NCBI GenBank assembly: GCA_012961935.1
Contig: DTYI01000244.1
Span: 1 to 50,276 of the forward strand
Reading direction: 5' to 3'
Origin: Thiotrichales bacterium
GTDB taxonomy: Bacteria > Pseudomonadota > Gammaproteobacteria > CAZUMV01
DNA: 50,276 nucleotides
In this document: positions 2,239-20,120 of the stretch, one piece after another
How positions within the stretch are numbered: the first letter of the stretch is position 1
Layout of the letters: each line of letters starts with the position of its first letter
Program-made: the position numbers and the translations under genes
The notes under the pieces: model-generated
What the model was told of the DNA's origin: nothing
The model's database searches: none
What the model saw: the letters and a program-made list of their open reading frames with translations, nothing else

Positions 2239-2497
2239 TAAAAGTTAAGATGTCTTCCAGTTGCCGTGTATTTTAGTCCCGAAACTGCATTGATCGTCTG
2301 GCGAATTCAAAATCAGCATGAACCATTAATCATAAATTCGAGGCCTGCGGGCTTTTTTTTGTGGAAACCCGGTCGTATTTTTATCAAAGTGTACGGTGAT
2401 GAATAATAGGGAGTGATTTCAGAAAGCGACGAAGTCTGGTTCGGCAAAATAAATGAGCAGGTGACTTTCTCGCGTTTCAATAACAATCAGTATTCTC

Positions 2498-4477
2498 ATG
2501 GAAGATAGAAATAATACAATTATTATCGTTTCTATTGGCTTTACGGCTGTCCTGGCGTTAATTGCTGCGCTTGTCCTGTTAACGTTGACGAAGCTTTATT
2601 CGGTCAATGTGGACATGCCCAGGCTTGTTGAAGAAGTTAGTATCAAGACAGGCGCCATACATACCATGCGTGATGCGATCCGCCTTCGCCAGCTTGATAT
2701 CAATAAAGCGCTTCATCTGGATGATATTTTTGCCAGAGATGAAATCAATATGAACCTGCTCCGCTACGCCACACAATATCGGCAGGCTGAACAAGTGCTG
2801 GATGGAATACCAAAAGGACCGCACGAGCAAAAAATTTATGCAGCACTCAAAGACACGACAAAAACGGCTTATTCTTATAATCTCAAGGCCATTGAATTAA
2901 TCATCGCGGGAGACAAAGGGGCATACGTCGAAGAGGTCTTGTCGAAAGCATTATTGCAGCAGGAAAAAGTGTTGGGACTGCTCAATGAGTATGTTGCGCT
3001 TCAGCAGCAGAATGCGGAAGATGCGATTGCAACAAATTACAGAGAGTATAAGAAAACGCGTAACTTGCTGGTAGCGCTTAGTACTATTGTTCTATTGTTA
3101 GCGGGTTTCATTGCCTTTCTGGTTATCAAACGCGCGTCGCGCAGTAATCGTGAAATTGTTCATCAGGCAAGTCACGATGCACTGACAGGTTTGATTAACC
3201 GACGTGAATTTGAACATCGTCTTGCGGATGCCGTCATGCAAGCGAAAACCCAGGATATAGAGCATGCCCTGATCTATCTGGATCTGGATCAGTTTAAAAT
3301 TATTAATGATACCTGTGGCCACATGGCGGGTGATGCTTTATTACAAAGAATTACCGCTGACCTCCAGTCCTATATTCGGCAAAGTGATAGCCTGGCAAGA
3401 TTGGGTGGTGATGAGTTTGCGATTATATTGTTAGATTGCAATCTCGAGGGTGCAGAAGTTATTGCTCAGGGCCTGATTGATGTGGTGAACAATATCCGCT
3501 TCACATGGGAAGAGCATGTTTTCAATGTCAGCGCCAGTGCGGGAGTCGTTCCTATTTCAAAGGATAGTGAGAACAGCGCGGTTGTCATGAGTGCCGCCGA
3601 TGCGGCCTGTTATGAGGCCAAAGATGCGGGGCGAAATGCTGTACGTACCAGTCAAAGTAGTAACCTGGAACCCAGCCAGCAGCAGGGTGATATATGGTGG
3701 GTGTCACGCATTAATCAGGCACTCGAACAAGACCGCTTTGAGCTATATGCCCAGGCAATTATCGCAACAAAAAATGATGAGGATATGTCGGCAGACTATG
3801 AGTTATTGTTACGCATGCGTGATCGGGAAGGAGCCATTGTTTTGCCGGGCGTTTTTATTCCTCCGGCTGAGCGATTTGGCTTGATGGTTAAACTGGATCG
3901 ATGGGTTGTATCGACAGCACTTGACTGGATAAGCGAGCATGGTGACGTACTTGGTGAGGCTTCTTTTTCGATAAATTTATCGGGTTCTTCAATAACCGAC
4001 CAAAGTTTTCAACGGTTTTTATCCGCAGTCATAAAGTCGTCCGATGTTGCGTCGGAGAGGCTACATTTTGAGATTACTGAAACCGCAATGATCGCTAATC
4101 TGGAGCTTGTATCGCAGTTTATTCATAACATGCAACAGATGGGCTGCAAATTTGCGCTGGATGATTTTGGTCGAGGTCTGTCTTCCTTCAGTTACCTTAA
4201 AACACTGCCGGTTGATTATGTGAAAATAGACGGAATGTTTATACGGGATATTGTGGACAACGCGGTTAACTTTGCGTTTGTAAAATCAATCGACGAAATT
4301 GCCAAAGCAATGGGTAAGAAAACCATTGCAGAGTATGTCGAAACCAAAGGCGCCCAAAATAAACTTCGGGATATCGGCGTAGATTATATTCAAGGTTATG
4401 CTATTCATAAGCCTGAACCGATTGATAATCTGTTGCTCAATGCGCCGGCAAGAAAAAAATTGCAGGAACAAAATTAG
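2498..4477 (+). CDS. Membrane-anchored sensor diguanylate cyclase/phosphodiesterase (GGDEF + EAL)
   Basis: 659-aa ORF with two TM segments flanking a helical periplasmic sensor region. It has a GGDEF motif (LARLGGDEFAIIL) with an RxxD I-site (RQSD) at canonical spacing. The EAL domain shows YELLLRMRD, FEITE, ALDDFG and KIDG motifs. Confidence 0.9.
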   Translation: MEDRNNTIIIVSIGFTAVLALIAALVLLTLTKLYSVNVDMPRLVEEVSIKTGAIHTMRDAIRLRQLDINKALHLDDIFARDEINMNLLRYATQYRQAEQVLDGIPKGPHEQKIYAALKDTTKTAYSYNLKAIELIIAGDKGAYVEEVLSKALLQQEKVLGLLNEYVALQQQNAEDAIATNYREYKKTRNLLVALSTIVLLLAGFIAFLVIKRASRSNREIVHQASHDALTGLINRREFEHRLADAVMQAKTQDIEHALIYLDLDQFKIINDTCGHMAGDALLQRITADLQSYIRQSDSLARLGGDEFAIILLDCNLEGAEVIAQGLIDVVNNIRFTWEEHVFNVSASAGVVPISKDSENSAVVMSAADAACYEAKDAGRNAVRTSQSSNLEPSQQQGDIWWVSRINQALEQDRFELYAQAIIATKNDEDMSADYELLLRMRDREGAIVLPGVFIPPAERFGLMVKLDRWVVSTALDWISEHGDVLGEASFSINLSGSSITDQSFQRFLSAVIKSSDVASERLHFEITETAMIANLELVSQFIHNMQQMGCKFALDDFGRGLSSFSYLKTLPVDYVKIDGMFIRDIVDNAVNFAFVKSIDEIAKAMGKKTIAEYVETKGAQNKLRDIGVDYIQGYAIHKPEPIDNLLLNAPARKKLQEQN

Positions 4478-4524
4478 CGTAACAGCTGTACCAGCATTTA
4501 AAGCATCCGGCAGATATACGCCAG

Positions 4525-5667
4525 CTAAAATCTTATTTTAACTTCTTTCTCATGCTCCATGCTTTCTATTGCTTCCTCCAGATCAATTTTCTGGTCGTTC
4601 CCAATTTTTTGTTCAGCCAAAATCTCAAACAGTTCTTTTTGTTCCAGGGTGTAGCTTTCACCAGTTTCTTTCTGGATATAGGCGGCCCAGGGTACAAATT
4701 TGGTGAGCGGAAATATTTGTCCTTCCCGGGGTGAAATGTCTATGTTGATACCGGAGACAAATAGCAGGTTTTTGTTTTGGTAACTGTGCTCCTTTACGAT
4801 GCTGCGGTAGGTTCGGTCGAACTCGATCTGGGTATTGATCTGGGCGGCGAGCAGCATCGGTTCCTTGCTGGTCACGATCCAGGGCATCGGATCAATCAGG
4901 TTGCCTTCCAGATGTGAGAGGCCCTCAATGTCACGTGAAAAGTGACGCTCAAAGTGAAACAGGTCAGCGGTTAGCAAGGAGCCAATCGGTTTTTTGGTCT
5001 CTGGCCATGCGTTGCCTGTGGCGGTGATGAACTCGGCTGAAGCCAGGAATGTTTTGCTCGTGCTTTGAGCGCGAATAAATCTGAAACGGTCATCATTCGC
5101 AACGGCAATCAACTTTTTCAGCGCAAGCATCAGACCTTCATCGCGGTGCGCAGAAAGCAACTGGTTATCCACTGTGATGAGGAAATCATCACCATTACGC
5201 TCGAGAAAAATGTTGTCCTGGGCGTAGTGGTATTCATCCAGATACCATTCGATAGTATGAAATATCTTGCCACAGTTTGCTGTGGCGCACTGGTCTTCTC
5301 TTTGCAGGCGACGGTAGTTGCCGAAGGTTGCATTCTCCGGGTCGTAGCCGACATGACTGGCCTGCACGATCACCATATCCTTGCCGTGGCTGGCATGCGG
5401 CCCATGCCGATCAGTGGCGACGATGCCGCCAACACGGCCATGATTAAAAGGAAAACCACCGAAGTGTTTGGCGAGCAGGATAATCGGATAGCCCTGGCTT
5501 TCGTCAGAACAGAATGCGCGTGATGGGGTGATCTTGCCGGGCTGCATGCCCAGCGAAAGTGCAAAGTTATAAAGCCGCGGTACAAACAGGCTGTAACGCA
5601 TCATCATGCCGTCGAGCTGAAAATTGCCCGGGGTGGTTTGAAGCTGTGAAGAGGCGAATGAATACAT
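4525..5667 (-). CDS. Conserved hypothetical cytoplasmic protein; possible LCIB-like beta-carbonic-anhydrase fold (hypothesis only)
   Basis: 380-aa ORF with no signal peptide or TM segment, lying directly downstream of the DAB-like operon on the same strand. It contains FCSDES (Cys53, Asp55), ASHVGYD (His105) and ANCGK (Cys132). This spacing resembles the Cys-His-Cys Zn site described for LCIB-family proteins. I did not recognise the family outright. Confidence 0.8.
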   Translation of the reverse strand: MYSFASSQLQTTPGNFQLDGMMMRYSLFVPRLYNFALSLGMQPGKITPSRAFCSDESQGYPIILLAKHFGGFPFNHGRVGGIVATDRHGPHASHGKDMVIVQASHVGYDPENATFGNYRRLQREDQCATANCGKIFHTIEWYLDEYHYAQDNIFLERNGDDFLITVDNQLLSAHRDEGLMLALKKLIAVANDDRFRFIRAQSTSKTFLASAEFITATGNAWPETKKPIGSLLTADLFHFERHFSRDIEGLSHLEGNLIDPMPWIVTSKEPMLLAAQINTQIEFDRTYRSIVKEHSYQNKNLLFVSGINIDISPREGQIFPLTKFVPWAAYIQKETGESYTLEQKELFEILAEQKIGNDQKIDLEEAIESMEHEKEVKIRF

Positions 5668-5793
5668 ATAAGCAGTTTATTTAGAATAAAAGCTTATTCT
5701 TTAGGCAAATCCCGGGGATGTCCAGAATTTTACGAAAATCCGGGTTAAGGAGCTTTTGTAGGCAAAGCTTCCGCTCCTGCTCACGCTCCTTAC

Positions 5794-7275
5794 CTACATC
5801 CCTGTAGGCACAATGATTCGCCAGTTACTTTCAGCGCTGGCGATGATGTCGAGGATCGCCTGTGGGTAGAAACCAAATACAAGCACCAGCAGGGAAATCA
5901 GGACCATCATCAATAGCTCTCGATTTTTCAGATCAACTGCGTCAATGACAGCTTCTCTATCAGCCGGGCCTAAAAATGCCCGGCGGTAGGTGTTGAGGAA
6001 ATAAGCCGCGCCCAGCACCATGGCAACAAGCGTGGCAAGCCCCACCCCAATATAAGCTTTAAAGGCGCTGAGGATAATCAGCAGCTCAGCCGGAAAACCG
6101 CTGGTGCCTGGAATGCCCATGCTGGCGAGGCCCAGGAACAGGAAGAAGCTTGTCAACAAAGGCATGCTTTTCGCTACCCCGCCCAGGCTGACGATATCGG
6201 TAGACCCCACACGCTGTTGCAGAAACCCTGTGAGCAGGAAAAGGCCCGAGGCAATCAGCGTAAAATTAAGCAATTGAAAAACAGCGCCCTGTAATCCCTG
6301 CGAGGTGAAGGTCGCCAGTCCAACAACGACCAGCCCAACATGGCTGAGGCTGGCATAGGCCAGCAGTCGCCGCAGGTTTGTTTGACTCAGTGCAGCGACG
6401 GCACCGTAGATTACACCGGCAATACCCAGGCCTGCCAGCAGCCACTGATAACTCAGCGCTGTCTCTGGTAGCAACGGCAGGACAAAACGCAGAATCCCAT
6501 AGGCGCCCAGTTTAAGCCCGACAATCGTGGCGAGTGTTGCCGGATGACCTTCCAGCGCCAGTACAGGCAGCCAGGTATGCATCGGCACCAACGGCGTTTT
6601 GACGCCAAAGCCGATTAGCAGCATGAAAAACACAGCGGTTTGATATCGATTTTCGCCGATGACAGATATGAGTCCCGGGTAGTTAAAAATATAGCTGCCA
6701 TCGGGTTGTATGGCGAGAATGACAAAGGCCAACAATAATGGCAGCCCGCCTGTCATCATGAACAGCACATATTTCGTCCCGGCGTAGCGACGATTGGGCC
6801 CCTGCCCCCAGAGGGTAATCAGGAAATACAGGGGTACCAGCGACAGTTCCCAGAACAGGAAAAACAGCACCGTATCCAGTGAAGTGAATATCCCGATAAC
6901 GACGGCCTGAAACAACAGCAGCAGCGCAAAATATAATTTGCTGAGTGAGTGGATGGCGTTCCAGGAAGCCAGAATGACCAGCAGAAATAGTAGCGATGTG
7001 GCGGGCAGAAAAAGCAAAGAAATACCATCAACGCCGAGCAGATAATGGATATTTAAAGTTGGAATCCAGGGTTTTGATTCGACAAACTGGAAGCCGGAAA
7101 GCTCGCTGTCAAAGCCGATAACGATCAGCAGGGTAACTGCCAGTGCGGTCAATGCTGTAAGCAGTGCAACCCAGCGCGCTTTGCGTGCAGGCGCGAGAGC
7201 CGTCAGACCAGCGCCAGTCAGCAGCAGAAGCATGAGCAAACTTAACCAGGGCAGATTGGATGTGTGCATGTCCAT
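5794..7275 (-). CDS. Complex-I/Mrp antiporter-like subunit (NuoM/NuoN/MrpD class), fifth gene of the DAB-like operon
   Basis: 493 aa and polytopic. Motifs are FLFWELSLVPLYFLI, GFGVKTPLVPMHTWLP, LKLGAYGILRF and RRLLAYASLSHVG. Its start overlaps the upstream stop by 1 nt (TGATG at 7275). Confidence 0.88.
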   Translation of the reverse strand: MDMHTSNLPWLSLLMLLLLTGAGLTALAPARKARWVALLTALTALAVTLLIVIGFDSELSGFQFVESKPWIPTLNIHYLLGVDGISLLFLPATSLLFLLVILASWNAIHSLSKLYFALLLLFQAVVIGIFTSLDTVLFFLFWELSLVPLYFLITLWGQGPNRRYAGTKYVLFMMTGGLPLLLAFVILAIQPDGSYIFNYPGLISVIGENRYQTAVFFMLLIGFGVKTPLVPMHTWLPVLALEGHPATLATIVGLKLGAYGILRFVLPLLPETALSYQWLLAGLGIAGVIYGAVAALSQTNLRRLLAYASLSHVGLVVVGLATFTSQGLQGAVFQLLNFTLIASGLFLLTGFLQQRVGSTDIVSLGGVAKSMPLLTSFFLFLGLASMGIPGTSGFPAELLIILSAFKAYIGVGLATLVAMVLGAAYFLNTYRRAFLGPADREAVIDAVDLKNRELLMMVLISLLVLVFGFYPQAILDIIASAESNWRIIVPTGM

Positions 7276-8777
7276 CAGTGAGCGCGCCCTTCAAAGTGTT
7301 GCGTTAAACCATCCAGTGGTTGTTCCAGCAGATCCAGCCACGGGTCCGAGAAAAAACCGATGCCTAGGATGATTAGAATCATGATGGCTGCCATCAAATT
7401 TTCAGACCATTTTGCTGGCGTCGTGTCCCAGCTTTGCCTGTTTTGTTCTGGCTTACTCAGAAACGCTCGCTGAAAAGCACGCAATAGAAAGGCGGCTGCA
7501 ACAACGTTGCCCAGAGCGGCTGCAATGGTAACCAGCGCGCCAAATTCAACAATCGAAGCTTCAAGTACAAAGTGAACGGCGTCGAATCCTGGCGTGCCCG
7601 GCATGCCGATAATAGCGAGACCAGCTATCAGAAAAGCGATGCCGACCCAGGGAATCGTCTCAAACAGCCCGCCCAGTTTTTGTATCGAAGTTGTTCGGGT
7701 ACGCAGCCAGACCAGTCCGGTCATAAAGATGAGTCCCGAAACCGCCAGGCCAAAATTAATTGACAGCATCAGGCTGCCTTCAAAACCTGCTCGACTCAGG
7801 GTGAACAGACCGATGACGAGAATGCTGGTATGGCTAATGACGGCATAGGCCAGAAGGCGTCGAATGTTATTCTGGCGCATGGCCAGTAAAGCCGCATAAA
7901 AGACACCGGTCACAGCGAATATGACGGCGATTTTATGCCAGTTGGTTACGCTTTCCGGCACGAGCGGGAAAACAAAACGCAACAGACCAAAGACACCAAC
8001 TTTCAGCCCCAGCAGAAAAACCGGCGCGACTGCGATGTTGCCGTGCTGCATGGCGATCGGCAGCCAGCCATGGAATGGAAACACGGGAATGCGTATGCCC
8101 AGACCATAAAAGAGTGAGAAAAAGATCAGCGTTGCGACCGTGGGTTCGATCGGTTTGCCGTCCAGCCGGTAGAGGTCAAAGCTCCAGATGCCGGCGGTAT
8201 TGTCCGCATAATTCCAGCCCAGCATAAACGTGCCGATCAGCAACAGTATGAAGCTCACCGTCATAAACTGTGTGTAGCGTGTGATCATCGGCTGGGCATC
8301 AATAAATGTAGCCCATCGGTACAACAGGTAGCCGACCAACATCATTTCTACACCTGAGGTCAGAACAAACCAGAGCAGATCCAGTGACACGAACTGACTC
8401 ATCAGGCTGGCCTGTATGGCTGCCATCACAGCCATTACGGGTGTGTTGTACAAGCGCCGCAGGATGATAAAGAATACGCCCAGCAAGCCAAATAAAGCAG
8501 TGAGCAGTACAAAGAGGACGGTCATGCCGTCCGCTGCGACATGGTAATTGATAAAGCCTAATAATCTGGAATGTTCAGCAAATTGCATCAGCCTGCTGCT
8601 GGCATCAAAACCATGATAGAGGGTAATTGCCAGTAACATTTCCGTGAGGGCTCCGACAATGGCCACAGCGATTGCCGGCCTCCCGCGAAGACGCCATAAA
8701 ACTGCACTCAGAATTAACGGCAGCAGTTGCAGACTGGTTAGCAGGGGCCAACTGGATTTAATTTCGGCAAATTCCAT
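7275..8777 (-). CDS. Divergent complex-I/Mrp antiporter-like subunit (NuoM/MrpD-like), fourth gene of the operon
   Basis: 500 aa and polytopic. The fold motifs are recognisable but altered: GLGIRIPVFPFHGWLPIAMQHGNIAVAP instead of GF-VK-P..H-WLP-AH-EAP, and SGVEMM instead of FWE. LKVGVFGLLRF and RRLLAYAVISHTS are retained. There is a TAATG overlap at 8777. Confidence 0.85.
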   Translation of the reverse strand: MEFAEIKSSWPLLTSLQLLPLILSAVLWRLRGRPAIAVAIVGALTEMLLAITLYHGFDASSRLMQFAEHSRLLGFINYHVAADGMTVLFVLLTALFGLLGVFFIILRRLYNTPVMAVMAAIQASLMSQFVSLDLLWFVLTSGVEMMLVGYLLYRWATFIDAQPMITRYTQFMTVSFILLLIGTFMLGWNYADNTAGIWSFDLYRLDGKPIEPTVATLIFFSLFYGLGIRIPVFPFHGWLPIAMQHGNIAVAPVFLLGLKVGVFGLLRFVFPLVPESVTNWHKIAVIFAVTGVFYAALLAMRQNNIRRLLAYAVISHTSILVIGLFTLSRAGFEGSLMLSINFGLAVSGLIFMTGLVWLRTRTTSIQKLGGLFETIPWVGIAFLIAGLAIIGMPGTPGFDAVHFVLEASIVEFGALVTIAAALGNVVAAAFLLRAFQRAFLSKPEQNRQSWDTTPAKWSENLMAAIMILIILGIGFFSDPWLDLLEQPLDGLTQHFEGRAH

Positions 8778-10348
8778 TACAACACCACCATGATGGTTGC
8801 CATGATGATGAGCAGTAAATAGCGCGGCTGGGCCAGCAGGTGGTCAATTTTTTCCAGATGACGGCCCAGGTAATTCACCAGTTTCATTAATGCACCACCG
8901 TCGCTCGGCAGGACTAAGCGGTCTTCAAGCCACTGCATTGCTTCGGCCAGCCACTCGAAAATAAACCCGAATAGCCCCCTGCCCTTGCCGACCTCGTTTG
9001 CAACCGTAAAGAGCCCCTGTTTGCTGGCTTCCAGTCGGGACAAGGTCGATAGCATGTTGGCATGTGAGGGGATTCCGATGAGGCGATCCACAACCTGTTC
9101 ATCGAACAACTGTGCTTCATGGGCAAGCGCACGGGTGGGTTTTACCAGCAACCAGTCTGACAGATCATCCAGCCAGAAACGCTGCATGGCAGCGGTATAA
9201 AGCCGGGGGTGTTTGCGTAGCCAGGCAGGCGCAGGTTTTGCCGGTTGTTGAACCTGCTGCATATAAGAAGGCGAGGAAAGAAATTGCCAGCTGCGCCAGA
9301 TCGCGTGCACGACCAGATGCAGCAACGCCAGATCAAACCAGCCCAGCCCGATCCAGACCAGCATCAGACCAACCTGCGTCAGTGTCGCAAACATCAGGGA
9401 TGTTTTGATGTCACTTTGCACCAGCCCGGCAAGCCAGGCGTAGAGGCTGGTCAGCAGTCCAATCATCAGGAGCATTATCATCAGTGCGGGCACCATTGTG
9501 AGCAATGGCTCCATGCGCAGCATCAGGTAAACACCTGCGTGTATCATCAACGCGCCGTAAAAAATGGTGCTGGACGGGGTCGGCCCTTCCAGCGCGCGCG
9601 TGACCCAGGATGAAAAAGGCAACTGTGCAGATTTCGCCAGCGCCGCCAGTAAAAAGCCGCCGATGATCAGGCCAATTTCCAGGGTCGGTATTGCTTTATC
9701 ATTTACGACGGTTGGGATTTCAGACCACTCGACACTGCCCAGCCAGATCAGTGAGAATACCAGCGCCAGCACAAACCCTGCGTCACCAATGCGGTTGGTG
9801 ACAAAGGCGCGCGTTGCATTGGCCGTTGCAGTGTTTCGGTGCCAGGCATAACCAATCAAAAGGTAGGAGCTGACTCCGGCCAGCTCCCAGCCGAAAAATG
9901 TGAATACTGCGCTACCTGCGGTGACGATGAGTAGCATCGCAGCGTTGAACAGGGATAGCACGAGGAAAAACCGCTGGAAGCCAGCTTCTCTGTGCAGATA
10001 GTTCACAGAAAAACGGGTCACCAGCAAACTGATAAAGGCAACCAGTGTCGCCATCACCAACACCAGCCGGTCAAACAGAAAACTCAGGTGAATCTGAATA
10101 CTGCCAATCGTCAGCCAGTCACCGACAATAATCTGCCCGGGAGCGTTGCCGCTCAGCGCGAGCCCGTCCAGAACAAGCAAAAGCAACAATGACAGGCTGA
10201 TGGCACCCAGCGCGACCCAAGCTGTTTCGCGCTCACCCGTCTCGCCCCGATTCCAGCCAAACAGATAGCCGACCGCGATCCATGCCGCTGCGAGTAGTGG
10301 CAGTGTTGGTATGAGCAGCGCAATCCAGGGATGCAGGGATTCAACCAT
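8777..10348 (-). CDS. dabB: NuoL/NdhF-like short antiporter subunit = DabB-type partner of DabA
   Basis: 523 aa. NuoL-type motifs are FFGWELAGVSSYLLIGY, TNRIGDAGF and AKSAQLPFSSWVTRALEGPTPSS..HAGVYLMLR. It lacks the long C-terminal lateral-helix extension of NuoL. It overlaps the dabA stop by 8 nt. Confidence 0.85.
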   Translation of the reverse strand: MVESLHPWIALLIPTLPLLAAAWIAVGYLFGWNRGETGERETAWVALGAISLSLLLLLVLDGLALSGNAPGQIIVGDWLTIGSIQIHLSFLFDRLVLVMATLVAFISLLVTRFSVNYLHREAGFQRFFLVLSLFNAAMLLIVTAGSAVFTFFGWELAGVSSYLLIGYAWHRNTATANATRAFVTNRIGDAGFVLALVFSLIWLGSVEWSEIPTVVNDKAIPTLEIGLIIGGFLLAALAKSAQLPFSSWVTRALEGPTPSSTIFYGALMIHAGVYLMLRMEPLLTMVPALMIMLLMIGLLTSLYAWLAGLVQSDIKTSLMFATLTQVGLMLVWIGLGWFDLALLHLVVHAIWRSWQFLSSPSYMQQVQQPAKPAPAWLRKHPRLYTAAMQRFWLDDLSDWLLVKPTRALAHEAQLFDEQVVDRLIGIPSHANMLSTLSRLEASKQGLFTVANEVGKGRGLFGFIFEWLAEAMQWLEDRLVLPSDGGALMKLVNYLGRHLEKIDHLLAQPRYLLLIIMATIMVVL

Positions 10349-13300
10349 GACTGGCTCGCTTAATCAGGGCTGGCGGCAAGTGATTTCGCTGACCGGCATA
10401 CCAGTCTGCTGAACGCGCTACCGTGGGTATCTGCTCCAGTTGTTCAGCCTGGGGTTGCCAGCGTTGCCAGCCGTGTTCCGGCTCGAAATAGTGAATCGCG
10501 TCCGTGTCTGGATCTTTGGCCGAGAGTAACAACCAGCCGTTTTCGACCAGTTGCCGAATCGGTGCCTGGCGTTTGTAAATTCCAGTCAGGACTTCCGTCG
10601 ATGCCTCGACCATCAGTTGCAGGCGCATCGGTTCGTGTATTGCGATCATTTGCTGGGGCAGGCCTGTGCGCAGGTCACTGGAGCCACCTTCCATGACGCC
10701 GAGCAGACCGGAAAGGTTGTGCATGATTTTTGAGCCGGCGCCATAGTAGTCATTATTAACGGTCGAAAAATAATATTCCAGATTAATGCCAACGCCGACC
10801 GGCCCAACGCTTAATAAAAGGTTTTCCAGCAAGCTACCTTCTGGATCAGTTGATGCGTCATATGAGATCAGGAAACAACGGCGGTCAAAAAAAGCACTGT
10901 GCGTGAAAGCGCGCCGCCCGACAAATCCCACGGCATTGGTGGCATGACCAAGCTCGGGTCTGGCCTGACTGAAATCAACCGCGCGACCGGCGATATGTCT
11001 GGCAGCCTGATCCAGGGAGGGATTGAGCGGCGCGGAGGCCAGTTTGCGGCAACGTTCATGGGCAGAGTGTTTTGCCGCCAGCTTGAGATCGCTAACCAGC
11101 TCGTTAAATCTGTCTCGTAGAGTGGCGGGTATCAGGTCGCGATCTTGCCAGAGAATATCCTCGTTACAGGTGTCGTGTTCAGCGCCCACAAACCAGCAAT
11201 CGTCAGGGATGGTAATGTTCTCTTCAGCCAGACGTTGCCGTACTTCGATATGGTTGGCCATGGCTGCAAAAACGCGTGCATTCGGGCCGCTGTATTTGCC
11301 GCTGCAGGCGCCGCATCCGTATGCGGCGGTATGTGGATTATTTTCGTTTCTGGAATAGTGGCCCATCATCACAACGAAGTGTCCAAAGCCGTTAGTCAGG
11401 CCATTGGTGCGCAGAAAGCCTGCCACAATTTTGGCCTGTTCCGCGATCGTAAAACCGTGCTGGTTGTGAGTGGCTGATCGCTGTTCATCCTCTGCTTCGA
11501 CGGTAAGTTTTAGCCTTGTACTCACATCATTATTAAAGAGCCGACTCAGATTGCTCCATTGCAGCGGCAGTAAAATTTTACTCGCCAGCGTAATCAATGT
11601 GGCAGGCGCTGCTGTTACGATGAGGCCTGCGGCGGTGAGTACAGAACGGCGGGTTTTCTGCATCAGCAGGGTTTTTAGTCGACTTTTGAATTGTTGACGG
11701 CGGCGATGTTTTTCTACGGCATTTTCTGCGCCGGGGCTGGCGACTTCTTCAATCTGATGGGTGGGTGTCTTCACGACTGGGCAAAGCGCCACGGGTTTTT
11801 GTTCATCCAGGCCCTGCCAGTTCATCACGATATCAAAAAAAGCGGCGGCGCCGAGTGTCTCGATGGTTGGGTTTAATGTTTCAAGATGTCTGCGTATGCC
11901 TTCCTCACGGTCATCCATACAAAAGATAACCTGAGCTGCCGGGCGGTCTGTCCGGTCAGCCCATAATCCACGTGCGTGATTTTTGCTGATGGCGGCAAAT
12001 ATCTGCTCACGGTAGTGATGCTCATAAGTCTGAAGCAGAAGAAAACCGGCAGTTTCGGGTTCGAGCCGGTCAATGCAGGCAAATAAAACGTTGATCTGTT
12101 CTGACTGCATGGCCCGGATGTCAGCACCACAAAGCCCCAGGTGCTGTGCCAGCCGGAATAATTTCCAGCCATGCTCGTAAACGTTATATCCCGTTTGTTT
12201 TTTACCGGCCGGGCTTTGCTGCCAGGTCCAGATCATATGCGCCAGTTGATGCCAGGTTTCGGCAGGGTAATTATCGACCGTAGACCGTTCTATTAACTGC
12301 TGGGCAAGTGTAATCAGATATTCCGGTAGCTGCTGGTTATAAAGCGCGTCACGTACCAGAAATTCAGAGTTGTTGCGGCGAAAGTAGCCACGAATATCAG
12401 ACAGGTTGGCGGCGACCAGCCATTTTTCACGGCAGAGCCGGTTGGCAAACAGATGTTCCAGCACCAGCCGTACAGCCAGGTAATCCATTATTTGCGTATT
12501 CGTTTCCAGGCCTTCGTAACCAGGATGGTTATGACGCCAGTAGAACATGCCTGACCAGCCAGGCAAATCCAGCGCCAGCCGTTTGATGTAGCCAGCCCAG
12601 CTGGATTTTGGGAGACCCATGCGCATGAGCTCGGTCATGATCGTATCCAGCGGATCATCGGGCAAGGAATCGATGTGTTCCTCCCAGTCCGGCAGCTGAT
12701 TGAGCATCCAGCTCAGATCAGTTTTTGCGCTGTTTTTCCACGCCCGATAAAAGCCACCTTGTTGATCCGATGCTTGCCAGGCAGCGATGCCCTGATCCAG
12801 CCAGTTGGCAATATAGTGCTGAAAATACGGCAAAATCTCGTCCTGGATATCAGTGCCGGTGAGCTTTTGTAGCAGTCCTCGGAGCGTAAATTTGTTACCC
12901 AGTTGCAAAAAAAGGGCTTCACGCTGTGTTCTGGTTTCCTGTTTGATCAGTCTGTCGATCCGGGCTGTTTTTGTATCCTCACTTTCTTCTGTAAAGAGGT
13001 TGGCAAACAATCGTTGCGCATCGTCTGGCGCCAGATCAACCAGCGCCTCGGGGTGAAGCATTTGCACATCCAGATCCAGCGTTTCCAGACAGGCCGCCCA
13101 AAGATCCTGAATGGCCAAAGATTCAGAGGCAAGCCCTTGCTTGTTTGCGCGTTCCAGTATGCTGGAGCGCGCATCTTCTGACACATCACGCTGTATTTTG
13201 TCCAGCGCATATGCTTCATCAACCTGCCAGTTGAACTGGCAGGGAGAAATACCTTTGAGTGGAAACAGCAACCCGACGCGATAAATATCTCGGCGGAAAA

Positions 13301-13628
13301 TACGGCCAGAGTCCGTTTCAAAAACGGCCTCGTTTGCCTGCAGGGATTTATCTTTATCGAGGACCGTGTCCAGATCGGTGTTGGTTATACGCCCTTGTTT
13401 ATAGTGGTCGCGGAATTGCGCCTGTGACTGGTAACCGTAAGCACCAGTCAGTTCATGTGTGGTTTTTAGTGCATCCTGAAACTTCAGATGCTGAAAGCCA
13501 TGCAGCGTGTTGTGATGGACAAAGTCTTTGATGGGGGCCTGGGCAGGAAGAATATGACTGAACTCATCCAGCAGATCGAGTAATTGTTCCTGAGGGGTTC
13601 TTTGTGTGGATGTATGATCGGCTGCCAT
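10341..13628 (-). CDS. dabA: DabA (DUF2309) inorganic-carbon pump subunit, unusually long (1095 aa)
   Basis: N-terminal PIKDFVHHNTLHGF motif. A beta-CA-like CxDxR motif FCMDDRE (Cys570 codon 11919-11921, Asp572 codon 11913-11915). GHYSRNENNPHTAAYGCGAC has His757 (11358-11360) and Cys772 (11313-11315) 15 residues apart. As I recall, this is the same spacing as the H. neapolitanus DabA2 ligands H524/C539. It is flanked by a NuoL-like gene. Confidence 0.88.
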   Translation of the reverse strand: MAADHTSTQRTPQEQLLDLLDEFSHILPAQAPIKDFVHHNTLHGFQHLKFQDALKTTHELTGAYGYQSQAQFRDHYKQGRITNTDLDTVLDKDKSLQANEAVFETDSGRIFRRDIYRVGLLFPLKGISPCQFNWQVDEAYALDKIQRDVSEDARSSILERANKQGLASESLAIQDLWAACLETLDLDVQMLHPEALVDLAPDDAQRLFANLFTEESEDTKTARIDRLIKQETRTQREALFLQLGNKFTLRGLLQKLTGTDIQDEILPYFQHYIANWLDQGIAAWQASDQQGGFYRAWKNSAKTDLSWMLNQLPDWEEHIDSLPDDPLDTIMTELMRMGLPKSSWAGYIKRLALDLPGWSGMFYWRHNHPGYEGLETNTQIMDYLAVRLVLEHLFANRLCREKWLVAANLSDIRGYFRRNNSEFLVRDALYNQQLPEYLITLAQQLIERSTVDNYPAETWHQLAHMIWTWQQSPAGKKQTGYNVYEHGWKLFRLAQHLGLCGADIRAMQSEQINVLFACIDRLEPETAGFLLLQTYEHHYREQIFAAISKNHARGLWADRTDRPAAQVIFCMDDREEGIRRHLETLNPTIETLGAAAFFDIVMNWQGLDEQKPVALCPVVKTPTHQIEEVASPGAENAVEKHRRRQQFKSRLKTLLMQKTRRSVLTAAGLIVTAAPATLITLASKILLPLQWSNLSRLFNNDVSTRLKLTVEAEDEQRSATHNQHGFTIAEQAKIVAGFLRTNGLTNGFGHFVVMMGHYSRNENNPHTAAYGCGACSGKYSGPNARVFAAMANHIEVRQRLAEENITIPDDCWFVGAEHDTCNEDILWQDRDLIPATLRDRFNELVSDLKLAAKHSAHERCRKLASAPLNPSLDQAARHIAGRAVDFSQARPELGHATNAVGFVGRRAFTHSAFFDRRCFLISYDASTDPEGSLLENLLLSVGPVGVGINLEYYFSTVNNDYYGAGSKIMHNLSGLLGVMEGGSSDLRTGLPQQMIAIHEPMRLQLMVEASTEVLTGIYKRQAPIRQLVENGWLLLSAKDPDTDAIHYFEPEHGWQRWQPQAEQLEQIPTVARSADWYAGQRNHLPPALIKRASHG

Positions 13629-13632
13629 CAGT

Positions 13633-15135
13633 TCAGGCTCCCAAAAGCAGTCGTTGGAATTCGTAAATCGTGGGGTTGATCAGTTGCAGTAATGGCGCCG
13701 GGTAGAAGCCGAGAATAATAATGCCCGCCGTCAGGATAGCAGCGGCAAGCATTTCCTGCGGACGCAGATCCTTGACATCGGCCATGGCTGATTTAGTCGG
13801 GCCGGTAAAAAGATACTTCACCGTCCTGATGCCGTAAGCCACACTGATCAGAATGCCCAGGCTGAGTATCATGATCACCCATCCCCAGGCCTCGAAACCG
13901 CCCAGTAATGCATGCAGTTCAGCAATAAAACCCGCGGTGCCGGGAAAGCCAACTGTTGCGATGAGGGCGATGATAATGAAAAAGGCAAACCGGGGGGTGG
14001 TCTGTAGCAATGATCCGTAATCGTTTACGTCACGGGTGTGGGTTCGTTCATACAGCAGGCCAATCAGCATGAACAGGGCTCCGGCCACCAGACCATGCGC
14101 AACCATTTGATAGACGGCGGCGATCATGCCATTTACGTTTAGCGCGGCGATTCCCAGTAGCACCACACCCATGTGTGAGACTGAGGAGTAAGCGATCATC
14201 TTTTTAAGATCAGTCTGACGCCAGGCAAGCAGGCCACCATAGATAATCCCGATCAGGGCCAGCGCCAGTAAAATTGTCTGCATTGCCTGGGCCGCATGTG
14301 GCAGCATGCCTGTGACACGGATAAGACCATAGGAACCCATTTTGAGCAGGATCCCTGAGAGTAAAATGCTCACCGAACTGGGTGCTTCGACGTGTGCAAT
14401 GGGCAACCAGCCGTGTAACGGAAAGATCGGCATTTTGACGCCGAAACCAATCAGCAGGCCGAGGAAAATCAGGATTTGTTGGCCGCTGTCCAGCAATCTT
14501 GCGCCTTCGGCCATGTTGGCAAATGAGAAGGAGTGTCCGGGTGTGGCGTCGAACAGCACCAGAAGGCTCAATAGCATGAACATCGAACCACCCATGGTGT
14601 AGAGCACAAAATTCAACGAAGCAGATTGGCGCTGTTTGCCGCCCCAGCGATCAATCAGGAAAAACAGCGGGATCAGGGTCAGTTCCCAGAAGACATAAAA
14701 CAAGGCCCAGTCCTGCGCCATGAAAACACCCAGCATGGCTGTTTCCAGTAATAACATCAGTAGGTAATAGCCTTTGGTTTGCCTGGTGATTGAGGCCGAA
14801 GCCAGAATAGCCGCCCAGCAGAGTAGTGCTGCGAGCAAGATCAGAGGATAGGAAAAGCCATCGACCCCGAGCGAGAATGAGGTACCTAACCGGCTGTGCC
14901 AGGTGTGAAAGTAGCTTTGCCACAAGCCTGTTTCAGTGGGTGTCACATCGCCCCAGAGCAGCAGCCAGGTAGCGTAGACCAGTGTCAGGGTTGTAAAAAC
15001 AATTGCGGTATAGCGGAAAAGCCTGGGGTACCTGGCCGGTAGCAGCGCAATCAAAATAGCGCCGCTTAAAGGCAGTAACAGTAAAAACAGTAGTGAGGAT
15101 GACCCCATGTTTTCAGAAAATCCGATCGTAACCAC
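13633..15135 (-). CDS. NuoM/NdhD-like antiporter subunit, first gene of the DAB-like operon
   Basis: 500 aa with a canonical NuoM motif set: FYVFWELTLIPLFFLIDRWGG, GFGVKMPIFPLHGWLPIAHVEAPSSVS, LLKMGSYGLIR and DLKKMIAYSSVSHMG. Its stop is 4 nt before the dabA ATG. The start may be GTG at 15135 or ATG at 15108. Confidence 0.88.
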   Translation of the reverse strand: MVTIGFSENMGSSSLLFLLLLPLSGAILIALLPARYPRLFRYTAIVFTTLTLVYATWLLLWGDVTPTETGLWQSYFHTWHSRLGTSFSLGVDGFSYPLILLAALLCWAAILASASITRQTKGYYLLMLLLETAMLGVFMAQDWALFYVFWELTLIPLFFLIDRWGGKQRQSASLNFVLYTMGGSMFMLLSLLVLFDATPGHSFSFANMAEGARLLDSGQQILIFLGLLIGFGVKMPIFPLHGWLPIAHVEAPSSVSILLSGILLKMGSYGLIRVTGMLPHAAQAMQTILLALALIGIIYGGLLAWRQTDLKKMIAYSSVSHMGVVLLGIAALNVNGMIAAVYQMVAHGLVAGALFMLIGLLYERTHTRDVNDYGSLLQTTPRFAFFIIIALIATVGFPGTAGFIAELHALLGGFEAWGWVIMILSLGILISVAYGIRTVKYLFTGPTKSAMADVKDLRPQEMLAAAILTAGIIILGFYPAPLLQLINPTIYEFQRLLLGA

Positions 15136-15308
15136 CCTGTTTTAATCGGGTGAAAGCTCAGTTGCGCGCAGATAGTTTGTGGCTGCAGCGTTCAGAAAAT
15201 GCTACCAGCCTGATTCAGACTGGTATATTAGCGGGGAATAATACATCTAGAGGCGTGATGAAGCTACTCATAAACCACAAAAATTAACCGTTTTGTGATG
15301 TGCGCAAA

Positions 15309-16493
15309 TTATCCTGGCTGCCCGTCCACCCGAGGACGGATCAGGATCGGGGTGTAGACCCAGAGAAAAATCAGAAACGCCAGTGTCCAGAGTATGCCTG
15401 AGATCAGGATGGCAAAAGTTTCCAGCCCGGATACCAGGGGGAAAAAGACCCGTACCACAGCCGCAATATTAAGCAGTACAAATGACCAGAGCATTACCGG
15501 CTGGAGTACCATTTCCCTGCCGGTGTGACCGATGGAAACGCGCGCCATCATGCCCAGTGTCAGTCCGCCGATGACGCCTGCTGTAAAAGCGTGCATCGCC
15601 AGCATCGGTGAAACAAGACCCGCAACGGCTGCGGCCTTGAGGGCAAAACCAATGACCATCCAGGCATATCCAAATTGCAGCACCCATATCAGTGGTACCG
15701 ATAGCATTTTGTTCGTCCACCACCCAGCCAGGCGGATGCCATGCAGGATCATCAACGCCAAGGACAGGATAACCACCCAGACACCATTAGCAGCAACGCC
15801 ATCGACGACGACCAGCAAAAGCATGCCTGCAATCAGGGCGTACTCAACCACTGGCCAGCTTCGTGTTTTAAATGTCATGCCTAATCCGCGTTCTGTGAAA
15901 AAACCGATCACACGTCCACCGATTATCGTAATCAGCAACAGGATTAAATCTGTTTCTAACAGCATGGCGGTTGAAGCCCATGCCGGTGCAAAATAGACAG
16001 CGGCATGGAGGGCTGCCATTACCAGTAAAAGCGGGATAAAAATCAGGTTGTGGATTTTGCCGGCACGGATGAGTGGTGTCGCAAGCGCGGCTGCGAGCAT
16101 GGGCAAAAAGCTGATGTCCAGCAGAGCAGTCAACCAGACCGGGACAGCGGGAATCAGCAGCGAAAACCGTGGCAACAGAAAAAGTAAAAGTAACGCCGCC
16201 AACCAGAATCCTTTCACTGTTTTGATTCCGGTCCAGTTGGGGACAGCAGTCAGGAGAAAGCCTGCAATGACAGCGACCGAATATCCAAACAACATTTCGT
16301 TGGCGTGCCAGAGCTGGAAGGTAATGGGTCCTTCAACCACGCGGCCAGCCTTATACATCCATAACCACAACGGCATCAGGATGACAGCGACAACCCCGGC
16401 AAACAGGAAAAAAGGTCGGAAGCCTAATTCAAACAGGGCAAACTTGTTTGCTGGGATTTTTGTAGTCGGTTCTTGCAGTGGAATGGTTGCCAT
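15309..16493 (-). CDS. nnrS: NnrS family membrane protein (NO-response heme/copper protein)
   Basis: 394 aa with about 12 TM segments. The N-terminal FALFELGFRPFFLFAG motif is typical of NnrS. A Crp/Fnr regulator is divergent, with an FNR/Dnr-type box between the two genes. Confidence 0.82.
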   Translation of the reverse strand: MATIPLQEPTTKIPANKFALFELGFRPFFLFAGVVAVILMPLWLWMYKAGRVVEGPITFQLWHANEMLFGYSVAVIAGFLLTAVPNWTGIKTVKGFWLAALLLLFLLPRFSLLIPAVPVWLTALLDISFLPMLAAALATPLIRAGKIHNLIFIPLLLVMAALHAAVYFAPAWASTAMLLETDLILLLITIIGGRVIGFFTERGLGMTFKTRSWPVVEYALIAGMLLLVVVDGVAANGVWVVILSLALMILHGIRLAGWWTNKMLSVPLIWVLQFGYAWMVIGFALKAAAVAGLVSPMLAMHAFTAGVIGGLTLGMMARVSIGHTGREMVLQPVMLWSFVLLNIAAVVRVFFPLVSGLETFAILISGILWTLAFLIFLWVYTPILIRPRVDGQPG

Positions 16494-16550
16494 GGTGAAA
16501 ATCTTAGTATTACAGTCGGTTATTATGGTTAGGGATATTGGGCGTTGCCC

Positions 16551-16564
16551 TTGATTTATGTCAA
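16551..16564 (-). promoter_or_regulatory. FNR/Dnr-type box TTGAT-TTAT-GTCAA in the nnrS / crp-fnr divergent region
   Basis: 9 of 10 positions match TTGAT-N4-ATCAA. A minus-strand CATAAT -10-like hexamer (16522-16527) puts the box centre about 42 nt upstream of the implied nnrS start site. Confidence 0.55.
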
Positions 16565-17253
16565 GTCTTCACGGAACATGCGGAATAATGAATAAAGACG
16601 AGATCCGAAAACTTCACCTGTTTGCCGCATTAGACGCGCAACAGTTTGACCATGTTAGTGAAACATCTGTTGCTTCAAAACTGGTTCCTCATCAAAATCT
16701 TTTTTTTCAGGGCGAATCGGCCTCCCATTTCTATCTGTTAGTTTCTGGCCAAATAAAACTCTACCTGTTGTCACCGGAAGGTGAAGAAAAGATTATTGAT
16801 ATTATCCAGCCAGGACAGTTTTTTGCCGAAGCAGTCATGTTTATGGAAGGTCAGCGCTATCCTGTCAACGCGACCGCGCTTGTGGAGTCTGAAGTGCTTG
16901 CTTTTGATAACCATGTTTATCGATCGATCATTGAAAATTCACCCAGGGTTTCGCTGGCAGTACTGTCTGATTTTAGTCGGCGTATGCACTTTATGCTGAA
17001 TGAAATTGACAGATTGGCTTTACATAGCGCCAGCTATCGGTTTGTTTATTATTTGCTGGAGAACGTGAGCGAAGAAGAAAGCCAGATTGACCTGGTGATA
17101 TCAAAACAGACGATTGCTTCCCAGCTCTCGATTAAGCCAGAGACACTTTCGCGGATCCTTAAGCGACTTAGATCAGAAGGCCTGGTGGAAGCGGATGGTC
17201 GACAGATCAAAATTCTGGATCGTGAGGCTTTGCGAGCTGTGTTGTTGAGGTAA
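16558..17253 (+). CDS. Crp/Fnr-family transcription factor, Dnr/NnrR-like (no FNR Cys cluster); the true start is probably ATG 16588
   Basis: Contains a cNMP-binding-like beta-roll plus a C-terminal HTH carrying the FNR-type E--SR recognition motif (PETLSRILKRL). It has no N-terminal Cys cluster. The track start at 16558 lies inside the palindromic box, so MNKDEIRKL at 16588 is more plausible. Confidence 0.85.
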   Translation: MSSLHGTCGIMNKDEIRKLHLFAALDAQQFDHVSETSVASKLVPHQNLFFQGESASHFYLLVSGQIKLYLLSPEGEEKIIDIIQPGQFFAEAVMFMEGQRYPVNATALVESEVLAFDNHVYRSIIENSPRVSLAVLSDFSRRMHFMLNEIDRLALHSASYRFVYYLLENVSEEESQIDLVISKQTIASQLSIKPETLSRILKRLRSEGLVEADGRQIKILDREALRAVLLR

Positions 17254-17402
17254 TTTGTGATGTCAGTCAGAAATCAGCCGGTGAATAGGTCCTTTTGTCG
17301 ACAAAATTAACGCGTATCAGGGAAAAAGTATAAATATCATGTATAACAAACAGAACATTTGTTGAAAACATCTAGAATTTAAAACCTTGTGATGGGGGGC
17401 GT

Positions 17403-17978
17403 ATGAAATTTTGGCTAGCAATAATTTCAGGTTTATGGGCGACTGCCGGGCTGGCGGAAGGCCTTGCCCAGTATGAGATACCCATGGAATCACAAGGCGC
17501 CCGCACATTCTATGTGCAATCAACCATCCCGGGTTGCGGCGAATCAATGTTGCTGGTGGACACAGGCTCAGGCCACAGTGTCATCAATGAAGAAACACTT
17601 GCGAGTCTCATGTCTAACGGCAATGCAGAATTTCTGAAAAACTTGCAGGGCATCATGGCGGATGGCAGCACAAGAATTGTGCCGTTGTACAGGATCTCCG
17701 CCATCACGCTGGGCGGTGGCTGTGTTATCCGCGACGTGGAAGCGGCCGTATTACCTGGTAATGCTCGCCAGATTCTCGGCATCAGTGCGTTGCAAAAAGC
17801 GGCACCTTTCGGATTTTCATTTGAGCCACCCATTTTAAGTCTTAGCAACTGTGAACTACCGGGTGTGCAAACAGCGAACGAAGAAGTTGTGCTGCCTGCA
17901 GAAGCACCTGCTGTGCTACCGGCTGATACTGATCAGAAAACGCCTGTAGAAACACAGGATCTTGCGGCTGCAAGTTAG
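17403..17978 (+). CDS. Secreted retropepsin-like (clan AA) aspartic protease
   Basis: 191 aa with a signal peptide (MKFWLAIISGLWATAGLAEG) and the retropepsin signature LLVDTGSGHSVI. Confidence 0.75.
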   Translation: MKFWLAIISGLWATAGLAEGLAQYEIPMESQGARTFYVQSTIPGCGESMLLVDTGSGHSVINEETLASLMSNGNAEFLKNLQGIMADGSTRIVPLYRISAITLGGGCVIRDVEAAVLPGNARQILGISALQKAAPFGFSFEPPILSLSNCELPGVQTANEEVVLPAEAPAVLPADTDQKTPVETQDLAAAS

Positions 17979-17997
17979 TACACATTGGTAAATAAAG

Positions 17998-18030
17998 AAA
18001 AGCTCCGCTAGTGAACAGCGCGGAGCTTTT
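17998..18030. terminator. Bidirectional Rho-independent terminator between convergent genes
   Basis: An 11-bp stem AAAAGCTCCGC / GCGGAGCTTTT with an 11-nt loop. It is flanked by a T-run on the plus strand (TTTTCCCC) and an A-run upstream, which reads as a U-run on the minus strand. Confidence 0.7.
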
Positions 18031-20116: not shown

Positions 20117-20120
20117 AGAC

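Follow-up and report, generated by a model that had tools for sequence, protein, structure and literature searches.

The DAB-type CO2 pumps were defined as a catalytic protein, DabA, together with a membrane protein, DabB, with uncoupler-sensitive uptake of inorganic carbon (Desmarais et al.). Structures of DAB2 solved by cryo-electron microscopy (cryo-EM; 9rd0, 9rd8 and 9rd9; 2026 preprint) are of a heterodimer in which a finger of DabA2, with a glutamate (E444) in its motif that is essential for DAB2, completes the proton path of DabB2, and no dependence on sodium was found. The cryo-EM structure of DAB1 (2026 preprint) is of a heterotrimer with DabC as a third subunit that is half as large as NuoM and superposes on the NuoM helices that lie next to NuoL; DabC has no proton relay, yet it is essential. 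Here we describe an operon of five genes, M1-dabA-L-M2-M3 (names given here), on the minus strand of a 50,276-nucleotide contig from the metagenome-assembled genome of a Thiotrichales bacterium (DTYI01000244.1, assembly GCA_012961935.1; this whole stretch is hereafter called the window), in which dabA lies amid genes for four antiporter-like membrane subunits. The composition of the described DABs, either a DabA:DabB dimer or a DabABC trimer with a small DabC that belongs to no Pfam family, is not matched by this operon, which is a conserved, widespread and larger relative of the two- and three-subunit CO2 pumps that has been glimpsed bioinformatically and is experimentally unstudied. We put at roughly 60% the probability that its five products form one complex, an enlarged DAB-type vectorial carbonic anhydrase driven by an ion gradient and equipped with a four-module membrane arm.

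The bioinformatic glimpse dates from the COGNAT paper of 2017 (Biol Direct, PMC5700660), which states in its accessible text that operons with ybcC (COG3002) upstream of nuoL 'frequently' carry COG1008 (NuoM) and COG0659 (SulP), and which proposes an energy-converting complex with an unknown exergonic reaction driving ion export. These 'Clade C' operons, with ybcC upstream of a nuoL homolog and extra COG1008 and COG0659 genes nearby, are almost certainly of the same type as the operon of the window. That account predates the discovery of the function of DabA, and its accessible text gives no fixed M1-A-L-M2-M3 order, no division of the M subunits into three orthogroups and no residue patterns. 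Beyond it, a search to which subscription-only literature was external found no study of the five-gene form by experiment, structure determination or transcriptomics; the experimental and cryo-EM literature that was found covers DabAB and DabABC only.

The operon consists of five coupled open reading frames (ORFs) at positions 5794-15135 of the minus strand. In order of transcription these are M1 (13633-15135), 500 aa long from a GTG start, with an equally plausible ATG start at 15108, 27 nt downstream; DabA (10341-13628), the beta-carbonic-anhydrase-like catalytic subunit of 1095 aa; L (8777-10348), a DabB-like, truncated NuoL-type subunit of 523 aa; M2 (7275-8777), a divergent NuoM-type subunit of 500 aa in which the conserved charge pattern is altered; and M3 (5794-7275), a NuoM-type subunit of 493 aa. 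All four junctions were read directly: M1 and DabA are separated by a gap of 4 nt (TGA-ACTG-ATG), DabA and L overlap by 8 nt (ATGGTTGA), and the L/M2 and M2/M3 junctions read TAATG and TGATG, respectively. The genes thus abut, with no space inside the operon for further subunits. DabA matches Pfam family PF10070 from profile position 2 to 747 of 747 (E=5e-231). The four membrane subunits all match PF00361, and L matches PF00662, the NuoL-type N-terminus, as well. The NuoM model of NCBIfam (TIGR01972, cut-off 264 bits) gives 482 bits for M1, 450 for M3 and 269, barely over the cut-off, for M2. No gene for NuoA, NuoH, NuoJ, NuoK, NuoB, NuoD or the small Mrp subunits was found by Pfam scan in the operon or among the 30 larger ORFs of the window, and outside the operon no nuo or mrp genes were found among those ORFs. 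An earlier note, made from the letters of the window, had proposed the five coupled genes with these coordinates and junctions, the identity of the 1095-aa protein as DabA (DUF2309), a set of four antiporter-like subunits of L-M-M-M type, and the absence of NuoA/H/J/K, of a redox module and of small Mrp proteins; all of this stood up to the direct re-reading of the ORFs and to the profile and tree analyses. Its premise that known DABs consist of dabA plus one dabB is correct for DAB2, but DAB1 has DabC as a third subunit.

The distribution of the operon was surveyed by scanning one genome per species with patterns drawn from an alignment of long DabA proteins; at least 592 relatives were confirmed, of which the best 80 loci were kept. 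The proteins of the window were mapped on the kept loci by tblastn, and those loci with enough flanking sequence were evaluated. Of 65 evaluable loci, 63 have M1 as the gene just upstream of dabA; of 54, 48 have L-M2-M3 just downstream, and in two further loci M2 is so divergent that tblastn scored it as M3. The carriers span the Gammaproteobacteria, Betaproteobacteria, Magnetococcales and Rhodospirillales and include Thiothrix, Cocleimonas, Thiobacillus, Chromatiaceae, Thiodiazotropha, Nitrosomonas, Nitrotoga, Methylobacter, Methylomicrobium, Methylomonas, Accumulibacter, Dechloromonas, a metagenome-assembled genome (MAG) of the Rhodospirillales and the gill symbiont of Solemya pervernicosa. 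Several are cultured strains, and marine taxa (Cocleimonas, the Solemya symbiont, Thiodiazotropha) are found among them alongside freshwater and wastewater taxa. For the 41 loci in which all five ORFs are complete, the estimated median spacers are about 1, -12, 22 and -8 nt, and neither in the window nor in these 41 loci is there a conserved additional ORF, or a small DabC-like ORF, between the genes. The arrangement is far beyond chance, being conserved across dozens of genera, and a large clade of DabA proteins of about 1100 aa has the five-gene order as its usual setting. The earlier note had presented the architecture as unusual; it is in fact common. The same note's account of the literature is also incomplete in that NuoM neighbours of ybcC were already reported in 2017 (PMC5700660).

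Comparison with a close relative indicates that the five-gene operon behaves as one cassette. Locus L088 shares the flanks of the window, namely genes for an aspartic protease, a Crp protein (81% protein identity), NnrS (87%), a GGDEF-EAL protein (92%) and X380 (87%), a soluble protein of 380 aa that is encoded downstream of M3 in the window. DNA homology between L088 and the window covers window positions 2306-5668 and 15310-18253 and breaks exactly at the start codon of X380 and the stop codon of nnrS. The intervening 9.64 kb of the window (5669-15309), comprising the five genes and both spacers, is replaced in L088 by 7.07 kb with a cluster of hydrogenase-4-like HyfB, NuoH-like, HyfE, HyfF, NuoC/D-like and NuoB-like genes that ends 10 nt before the X380 homolog. 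The large subunit of this cluster has neither of the CxxC motifs for nickel-iron binding, so the cluster is assigned by sequence to the 'Ehr' type. Another relative, L087, has the order M1-DabA-L-M2-M3-X380 at 73% DNA identity to the window.

Variation within the operon is informative as well. In Thiothrix, the two loci that extend far enough downstream (L006 8514-23111, and L048 7490-21386 of Thiothrix fructosivorans) have the order M1-DabA-L-DabA'-L'-M2-M3. The two copies of DabA share 51-52% and 42-43% identity with the DabA of the window, and the active site is intact in both. This tandem duplication suggests that DabA-L serves as an exchangeable catalytic head and that the M subunits are shared.

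Other arrangements were noted in passing. A two-gene DAB (L021 3244-7763, -), which encodes an 871-aa DabA and a DabB of about 635 aa with a TM12-like GFPxTxxFxGE motif, is located about 700 bp upstream of the five-gene operon of Methylomicrobium lacus on the opposite strand; the two-gene and five-gene forms coexist side by side in this genome. Operons with DabA proteins 43-50% identical to that of the window are also present on contigs (L005, L076, L079 and L067) whose bins are assigned to Bathyarchaeota, Synechococcaceae, Bdellovibrio and Acidobacteria; these placements reflect either binning contamination or horizontal transfer.

The DabA of the window is a distant match (E=5e-69) to the solved DabA2 of Halothiobacillus neapolitanus (9rd0_A). 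Residues C570-x-D572-x-R574, H757 and C772 align on the zinc and catalytic residues of DabA2 (FCIDVR / GH / DCGAC). All five are unchanged among 28 aligned database homologs and identical in 66 of 66 sequences from related loci, including a two-gene DabA. Judged by these residues, DabA keeps the zinc site of beta-carbonic anhydrases. It is about 270 aa longer than DabA2; about 230 extra residues, mainly at approximately 90-254 and 396-528, are seen in the alignment with DabA2, and these regions contain invariant positions in the homolog alignment. Its single hydrophobic segment (663-681) falls in a predicted hairpin at about residues 661-690, where the DAB2 and DAB1 structures show the membrane-entering 'finger' or 'elbow' hairpin. 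In five-gene DabA proteins this hairpin has the motif LAAPxxL followed by a conserved Lys or Arg (P675 and K/R684 in the window numbering) and no acidic residue; the two-gene DabA of M. lacus has Glu residues at the hairpin. In the DAB1 structure DabB is contacted by the Asp that precedes the second zinc cysteine. A general loss of this residue from five-gene DabA proteins was considered and rejected, as the position is Asp in 49 of 65 sequences and Gly only in the subclade of the window.

For the membrane subunits, 237 sequences of the window and related loci were aligned with NuoL, NuoM and NuoN of Escherichia coli MG1655. M1, M2 and M3 each have 14 hydrophobic segments, predicted transmembrane (TM) helices in the topology of NuoM and NuoN, and match PF00361 with E-values of 8e-75, 1e-33 and 3e-56, respectively. 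The M1 relay residues E151, K234, K265, H321, H347 and E406, which are equivalent to E144, K234, K265, H322, H348 and E407 of E. coli NuoM, are the same in 62-63 of its 63 orthologs. In M3 the residues E143, K226, K255, H312 and E397 are retained by 51-53 of 53 orthologs, and Phe stands at the equivalent of NuoM H348. In M2 two of the four canonical charged residues are lost. The TM7 Lys is replaced by Arg (R229) in 54 of 55 orthologs, the TM8 Lys (K259) is retained, the counterpart of the TM5 Glu stands two positions further on, where NuoN also has it, and is Glu in 38 of 55 and Gln in 14 of 55, and the TM12 Glu is replaced by Val or Ala inside a conserved GFDAxH motif. This pattern of M2 is as conserved as those of its neighbours, which indicates, at the level of sequence, selection rather than decay. 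A neighbour-joining tree pairs M1 with E. coli NuoM as its sister, joins M2 and M3 in the next clade and leaves NuoN outside; by this placement 'L-M-M-M' describes the subunit set accurately.

The special pattern of M2 bears on whether the operon might encode two co-transcribed products, an ordinary DabA-L pump and an unrelated membrane assembly of M1, M2 and M3. Physical contact between the two parts is putative, it is DabA-L alone that is duplicated in Thiothrix, and a few contigs carry DabA without downstream M genes, all of which would suit separate products. However, in 41 complete loci from several classes dabA and L are enclosed by M1 on one side and M2 on the other, and the reading frames overlap or nearly touch; the conserved residues of M2 also argue for a dedicated partner role. 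Moreover, we know of no assembly made solely of M-type subunits that lacks an L- or A-type subunit or a redox partner. Two separate products are therefore considered improbable.

L has about 11 hydrophobic segments up to residue 365, then about 135 residues without a TM helix, then one C-terminal TM helix. TM12-14 are missing, and nothing is equivalent to K399/D400 of NuoL. Its match to PF00361 covers only profile positions 5-223 of 294, the NCBIfam match to NuoL covers only residues 10-367, and L scores below every family cut-off. Its closest solved structures are NdhF and NuoL over residues 10-367, and DabB2 (9rd0_B) is matched with E=1.6e-35. L keeps E155, R186, D189, K239, H344 and H348, with R352 at the position of K342, and so retains the NuoL-type interface ion pairs E155/R186 and D189/K239. 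In an AlphaFold2 (AF2) model residues 1-395 are confident, and residues 396-523 form short helices with a predicted local confidence (pLDDT) below 50. The Glu at position 155, which is Ile (Ile151) in DabB2, was tried as a marker of L subunits that have a neighbour and was rejected, because the two-gene DabB of M. lacus keeps Glu.

The likenesses to DAB2 are therefore the PF10070 DabA with its CxDxR...H...C zinc site, the NuoL-like PF00361/PF00662 partner of about 520-550 aa with TM1-11 matching NuoL, and the hairpin of DabA, which is inserted into the membrane subunit in the DAB2 structure and is predicted here; the differences are the three added genes for full-length NuoM-type subunits and the TM5 Glu kept in L. 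DAB1 (Thermocrinis albus / H. neapolitanus) resembles the operon in having dabA upstream of dabB, a long DabA (1046 aa for DabA1) and a further membrane subunit beside the NuoL-like subunit, at the NuoM position of complex I. It differs, by its description, in that DabC is half-size, belongs to no Pfam family and is hydrophobic at the relay sites, whereas M1, M2 and M3 are full NuoM homologs of 14 TM helices each, and M1 and M3 have the relay intact. In terms of the membrane arm of complex I, the relay is complete in M1 and M3, partial in M2 and present to TM11 only in L; the NuoH/A/J/K E-channel and the NuoB/D quinone module are what complex I has in addition.

Vectorial CO2 hydration on NuoL- and NuoM-type subunits is also carried out by the cyanobacterial complexes NDH-1MS (NdhF3/NdhD3/CupA/CupS) and NDH-1MS' (NdhF4/NdhD4/CupB), and the module might likewise dock on a host complex I core (NuoA-K with the quinone and NADH modules, encoded elsewhere) to give a redox-driven, CO2-hydrating isoform of complex I. 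Such docking would fit the scores of the M subunits above the NuoM cut-off, the sister relationship of M1 to E. coli NuoM, the NdhF subunits of photosynthetic NDH-1 as the best solved relatives of L, and the ion pairs that L retains. Genes for complex I (nuo) are expected in all of the host lineages. One M and one L subunit would be enough for docking, yet three M-type subunits and no NuoN-type subunit are present; L is without TM12-16 and without a confidently predicted counterpart of the long lateral helix that anchors NuoL and NdhF; DAB2 and DAB1 act as isolated, uncoupler-sensitive complexes without redox partners; and the operon block moves as a self-contained cassette. NDH-1MS differs further in its driving force, electron transfer in a complete complex I core that the operon does not encode, and in its Cup proteins, of which CupA is unrelated to DabA and none is encoded in the operon; L scores 141.5 bits against the NdhF3 family (TIGR01960), for which the cut-off is 588.7. 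We therefore regard docking on complex I as having little probability.

Mrp (CPA3) antiporters are likewise free of redox modules and have more than one PF00361 subunit (MrpA and MrpD), and PF00361 proteins are the ion-translocating subunits of Mrp. M1-M3 and L could accordingly be imagined as an Mrp-like cation/proton antiporter joined to DabA, which would dispose of the proton released by hydration or allow the pump to be driven by a sodium gradient, and would not multiply the proton stoichiometry. It has been argued that MpsAB, a Staphylococcus aureus homolog, uses sodium, and many carriers of the operon are marine. The MrpA and MrpD models, however, score L and M1-M3 far below their own cut-offs and below the NuoM and NuoL models, and MrpB, MrpC, MrpE, MrpF and MrpG and the long C-terminal domain of MrpA, all required by Mrp, have no counterparts here; small ORFs are absent both between the five genes and next to them. 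Freshwater and wastewater taxa are among the carriers, and DAB2 has no sodium dependence. An Mrp-like role is thus unlikely.

For the enlarged DAB-type pump that we favour, what we infer, namely assembly of the complex, hydration driven by influx, the stoichiometry, the coupling ion and the role of M2, would be as follows. DabA would hydrate cytoplasmic CO2 to bicarbonate at its buried Cys-His-Cys zinc site. By analogy with DAB2 and DAB1, L would conduct ions down the membrane gradient and gate DabA through the inserted hydrophobic hairpin, which would sense the influx and open or close access to the zinc site so that hydration alone proceeds. In complex I it is the TM5/TM7 side of NuoL that is turned towards the TM12 residue of NuoM, and DabA is bound to DabB on the other side, that of TM12; the three full-length NuoM-type subunits would then most simply be placed on the free TM5 side of L, the place of DabC in DAB1. 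M1 and M3, their relay residues being intact, would probably conduct ions themselves. M2, with its fixed TM7 Arg and no TM12 carboxylate, would probably be a non-pumping connector or spacer that passes on an electrostatic or conformational signal, analogous to DabC. The result would be a redox-free arm in the style of complex I, driven 'backwards' by ion-motive force and holding CO2 hydration far from equilibrium, and the bicarbonate would be supplied to autotrophs, methanotrophs and nitrifiers. The variant favoured is that more than one ion enters per CO2, or that the added modules contribute force for gating or a way out for the hydration proton. The free-standing complex-I-type arm and the different coupling ratio or ion that the earlier note had suggested can thus reasonably be inferred.

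A more detailed version is put forward tentatively, at clearly lower confidence than the complex itself: that influx through several modules of the redox-free L-M-M-M arm is funnelled over a long range into the gating of DabA, at a higher ratio of ions to CO2 than in DabAB, with M2 as a built-in non-pumping relay. As an addition to this version, X380 may be a soluble partner common to this module and the Ehr-type cluster.

Several observations weigh against the enlarged pump. The binding of the M subunits to DabA-L that it requires is a prediction. The essential Glu444 of DabA2 is not conserved in the DabA of the window or in the other five-gene DabA proteins, in a region where the alignment is weak, and the AF2 model of L has no confident equivalent of the long lateral helix of NuoL. 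No Rubisco or carboxysome genes were found in the 50-kb window. By our own estimate one proton per CO2 at 150 mV suffices for a disequilibrium of about 300-fold, so three extra pumps are not obviously needed; the benefit of the extra modules may be operation at low gradient or low CO2, or may be kinetic, and not a higher thermodynamic ceiling. Finally, dabA occurs without the full set in a few MAG contigs, as M1-DabA only (L008 5008-8241 and L080 10001-13177), as DabA alone (L054 4147-7173) and as DabA-L only (L009 1056-5811). There are no runs of N downstream in L008, L009 or L080, and the partial sets are either real reduced variants or misassemblies.

The direction of coupling could also be the opposite, with CO2/bicarbonate chemistry generating a membrane potential or ion gradient, as first proposed for the ybcC operons and for Mps, the 'membrane-potential-generating system'. 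This would agree with the exergonic reaction driving ion export that the accessible text of the COGNAT paper proposes. Four pump modules would suit a generator, but DAB2 and DAB1 consume a gradient and do not make one. In addition, CO2 hydration near equilibrium yields very little free energy. Reverse operation is accordingly considered very improbable, more so than the other alternatives, and the enlarged, gradient-consuming pump is retained as the preferred reading.

The neighbours of the operon support an inorganic-carbon role for it, since two unrelated soluble proteins of beta-carbonic-anhydrase fold and bicarbonate-type transporters are found nearby. X380 (4525-5667, -) is encoded 126 nt downstream of M3, and its sequence is identical to the deposited EYP51_11255. 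The protein of the window has no match in Pfam even at E=10, although 20 of 27 homologs match PF18599 (LCIB_C_CA) weakly, with E<=0.01 and scores around the 25-bit cut-off. A profile of the X380 family found nothing among the sequences of the Protein Data Bank (PDB), and the identification comes from the fold search only. With an AF2 model of pLDDT 81.6, the top eight PDB matches by Foldseek are all LCIB, LCIC, PtLCIB4 or the 'CCM related protein' 6kfs (E from 1e-8 to 6e-5, target-normalised TM-score 0.72-0.79), and there are no other significant matches; C53, D55, H105 and C132 are invariant in 27 sequences. X380 is thus predicted from its model to have an LCIB-like beta-carbonic-anhydrase fold, in agreement with the beta-carbonic-anhydrase-like site that the earlier note had thought possible.

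In a survey of 80 metagenomic loci and the earlier loci, X380 was found beside the five-gene operon in six (the window, L087, L003, L004, L131 and L134), in four arrangements (downstream, upstream, divergent and convergent). Homologs adjoin the Ehr-type cluster in L088, L089, L091 and L094, and more distant homologs (59-60% identity) are beside HyfB-like or NuoB-like genes. In the window and L087 as against L088 (3164-11143), X380 is the fixed last gene of a slot of which the upstream module differs. Most homologs are stand-alone, including those in three long contigs; X380 is therefore a recurrent but not an obligate neighbour of the operon.

A second soluble protein, of 359 aa, is present in 8 of the 41 complete loci. 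It directly follows M3 on the same strand in six Nitrosomonas-type loci (L019 17990-19069, L023 17038-18120, L024 9866-10933, L031 16593-17666, L034 17978-19054 and L038 12645-13724, all on the plus strand), starting about 55-65 nt after M3 where checked, and is nearby on the opposite strand in L043 and L046. Its profile matches structures of the carboxysomal carbonic anhydrase CsoSCA (8thm_A, E=2e-7; 2fgy_A, E=1e-5), and C45-x-D47-x-R49, H105 and C115 are invariant. A relationship between X380 and this CsoSCA-like protein was considered and rejected, as hhalign shows no detectable relation; by sequence they are two independent recruitments. Transporters of the SulP family (PF00916, BicA-type) flank 16 of the 41 complete loci, mostly upstream on the same strand; examples are L024 11030-12616 and L028 6646-8397, in agreement with the COG0659 neighbours reported in 2017. 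NtrC-type sigma-54 activators flank 13 of the 41.

The remainder of the window consists of housekeeping genes and a flavocytochrome-c sulfide dehydrogenase. Immediately around the operon are nnrS and a divergent Crp/Fnr gene upstream, and X380 and a GGDEF-EAL gene downstream. The G+C content of the operon is 0.52-0.54, above that of the immediate flanks (0.45-0.48). The nnrS gene (15309-16493, -) encodes a haem-copper membrane protein of the nitric oxide response, and the Crp/Fnr-family regulator is encoded at 16558-17253 (+). This pair is kept in L088 whichever cassette follows, and is therefore probably unrelated to the operon. The spacer between nnrS and M1 (15136-15308, -) presumably contains the operon promoter, together with a hairpin (15225-15203) that, from its sequence, is likely to be the nnrS terminator. 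No convincing sigma-70 or sigma-54 consensus was found in 15136-15308 upstream of M1, and sigma-70-like matches in promoter scans were not commoner than in shuffled sequences. Elsewhere in the window a perfect sigma-54 consensus, TGGCACAAGGGTTGCT, is located at 18431-18446 (-), upstream of an 85-aa ORF (18106-18363, -) that adjoins genes for a HAMP histidine kinase and an NtrC-type activator (18662-22050, +).

If the more detailed version of the mechanism is true, this would be the first natural case of the pumping arm of complex I being reversed as a motor. How the antiporter-like subunits of complex I communicate over more than 100 angstroms is a long-standing question, made hard by the signal starting in the redox module. 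A four-module arm with an assayable carbonic anhydrase as its only partner would be a minimal system for this question, in which M2 would be a natural 'dead-relay' subunit and the two- and three-subunit relatives would serve for comparison. The engineering of CO2 pumps in crops and microbes would benefit directly from knowing if the added subunits increase the power to concentrate CO2 or alter which ion is coupled. The proposed reading of X380, if true, would connect LCIB, an enigmatic family, with membrane machinery that is energy-coupled, and this LCIB-like neighbour, with its alternative Ehr-type pairing, is a further lead in its own right. For carbon cycling, nitrifiers, type I methanotrophs, polyphosphate accumulators, magnetotactic bacteria and sulfur-oxidising symbionts are the groups in which DabA was found in the setting of the five-gene operon and not of dabAB. 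Many of these are thought to be without carboxysomes, and the operon may there have a role in bicarbonate supply or CO2 retention.

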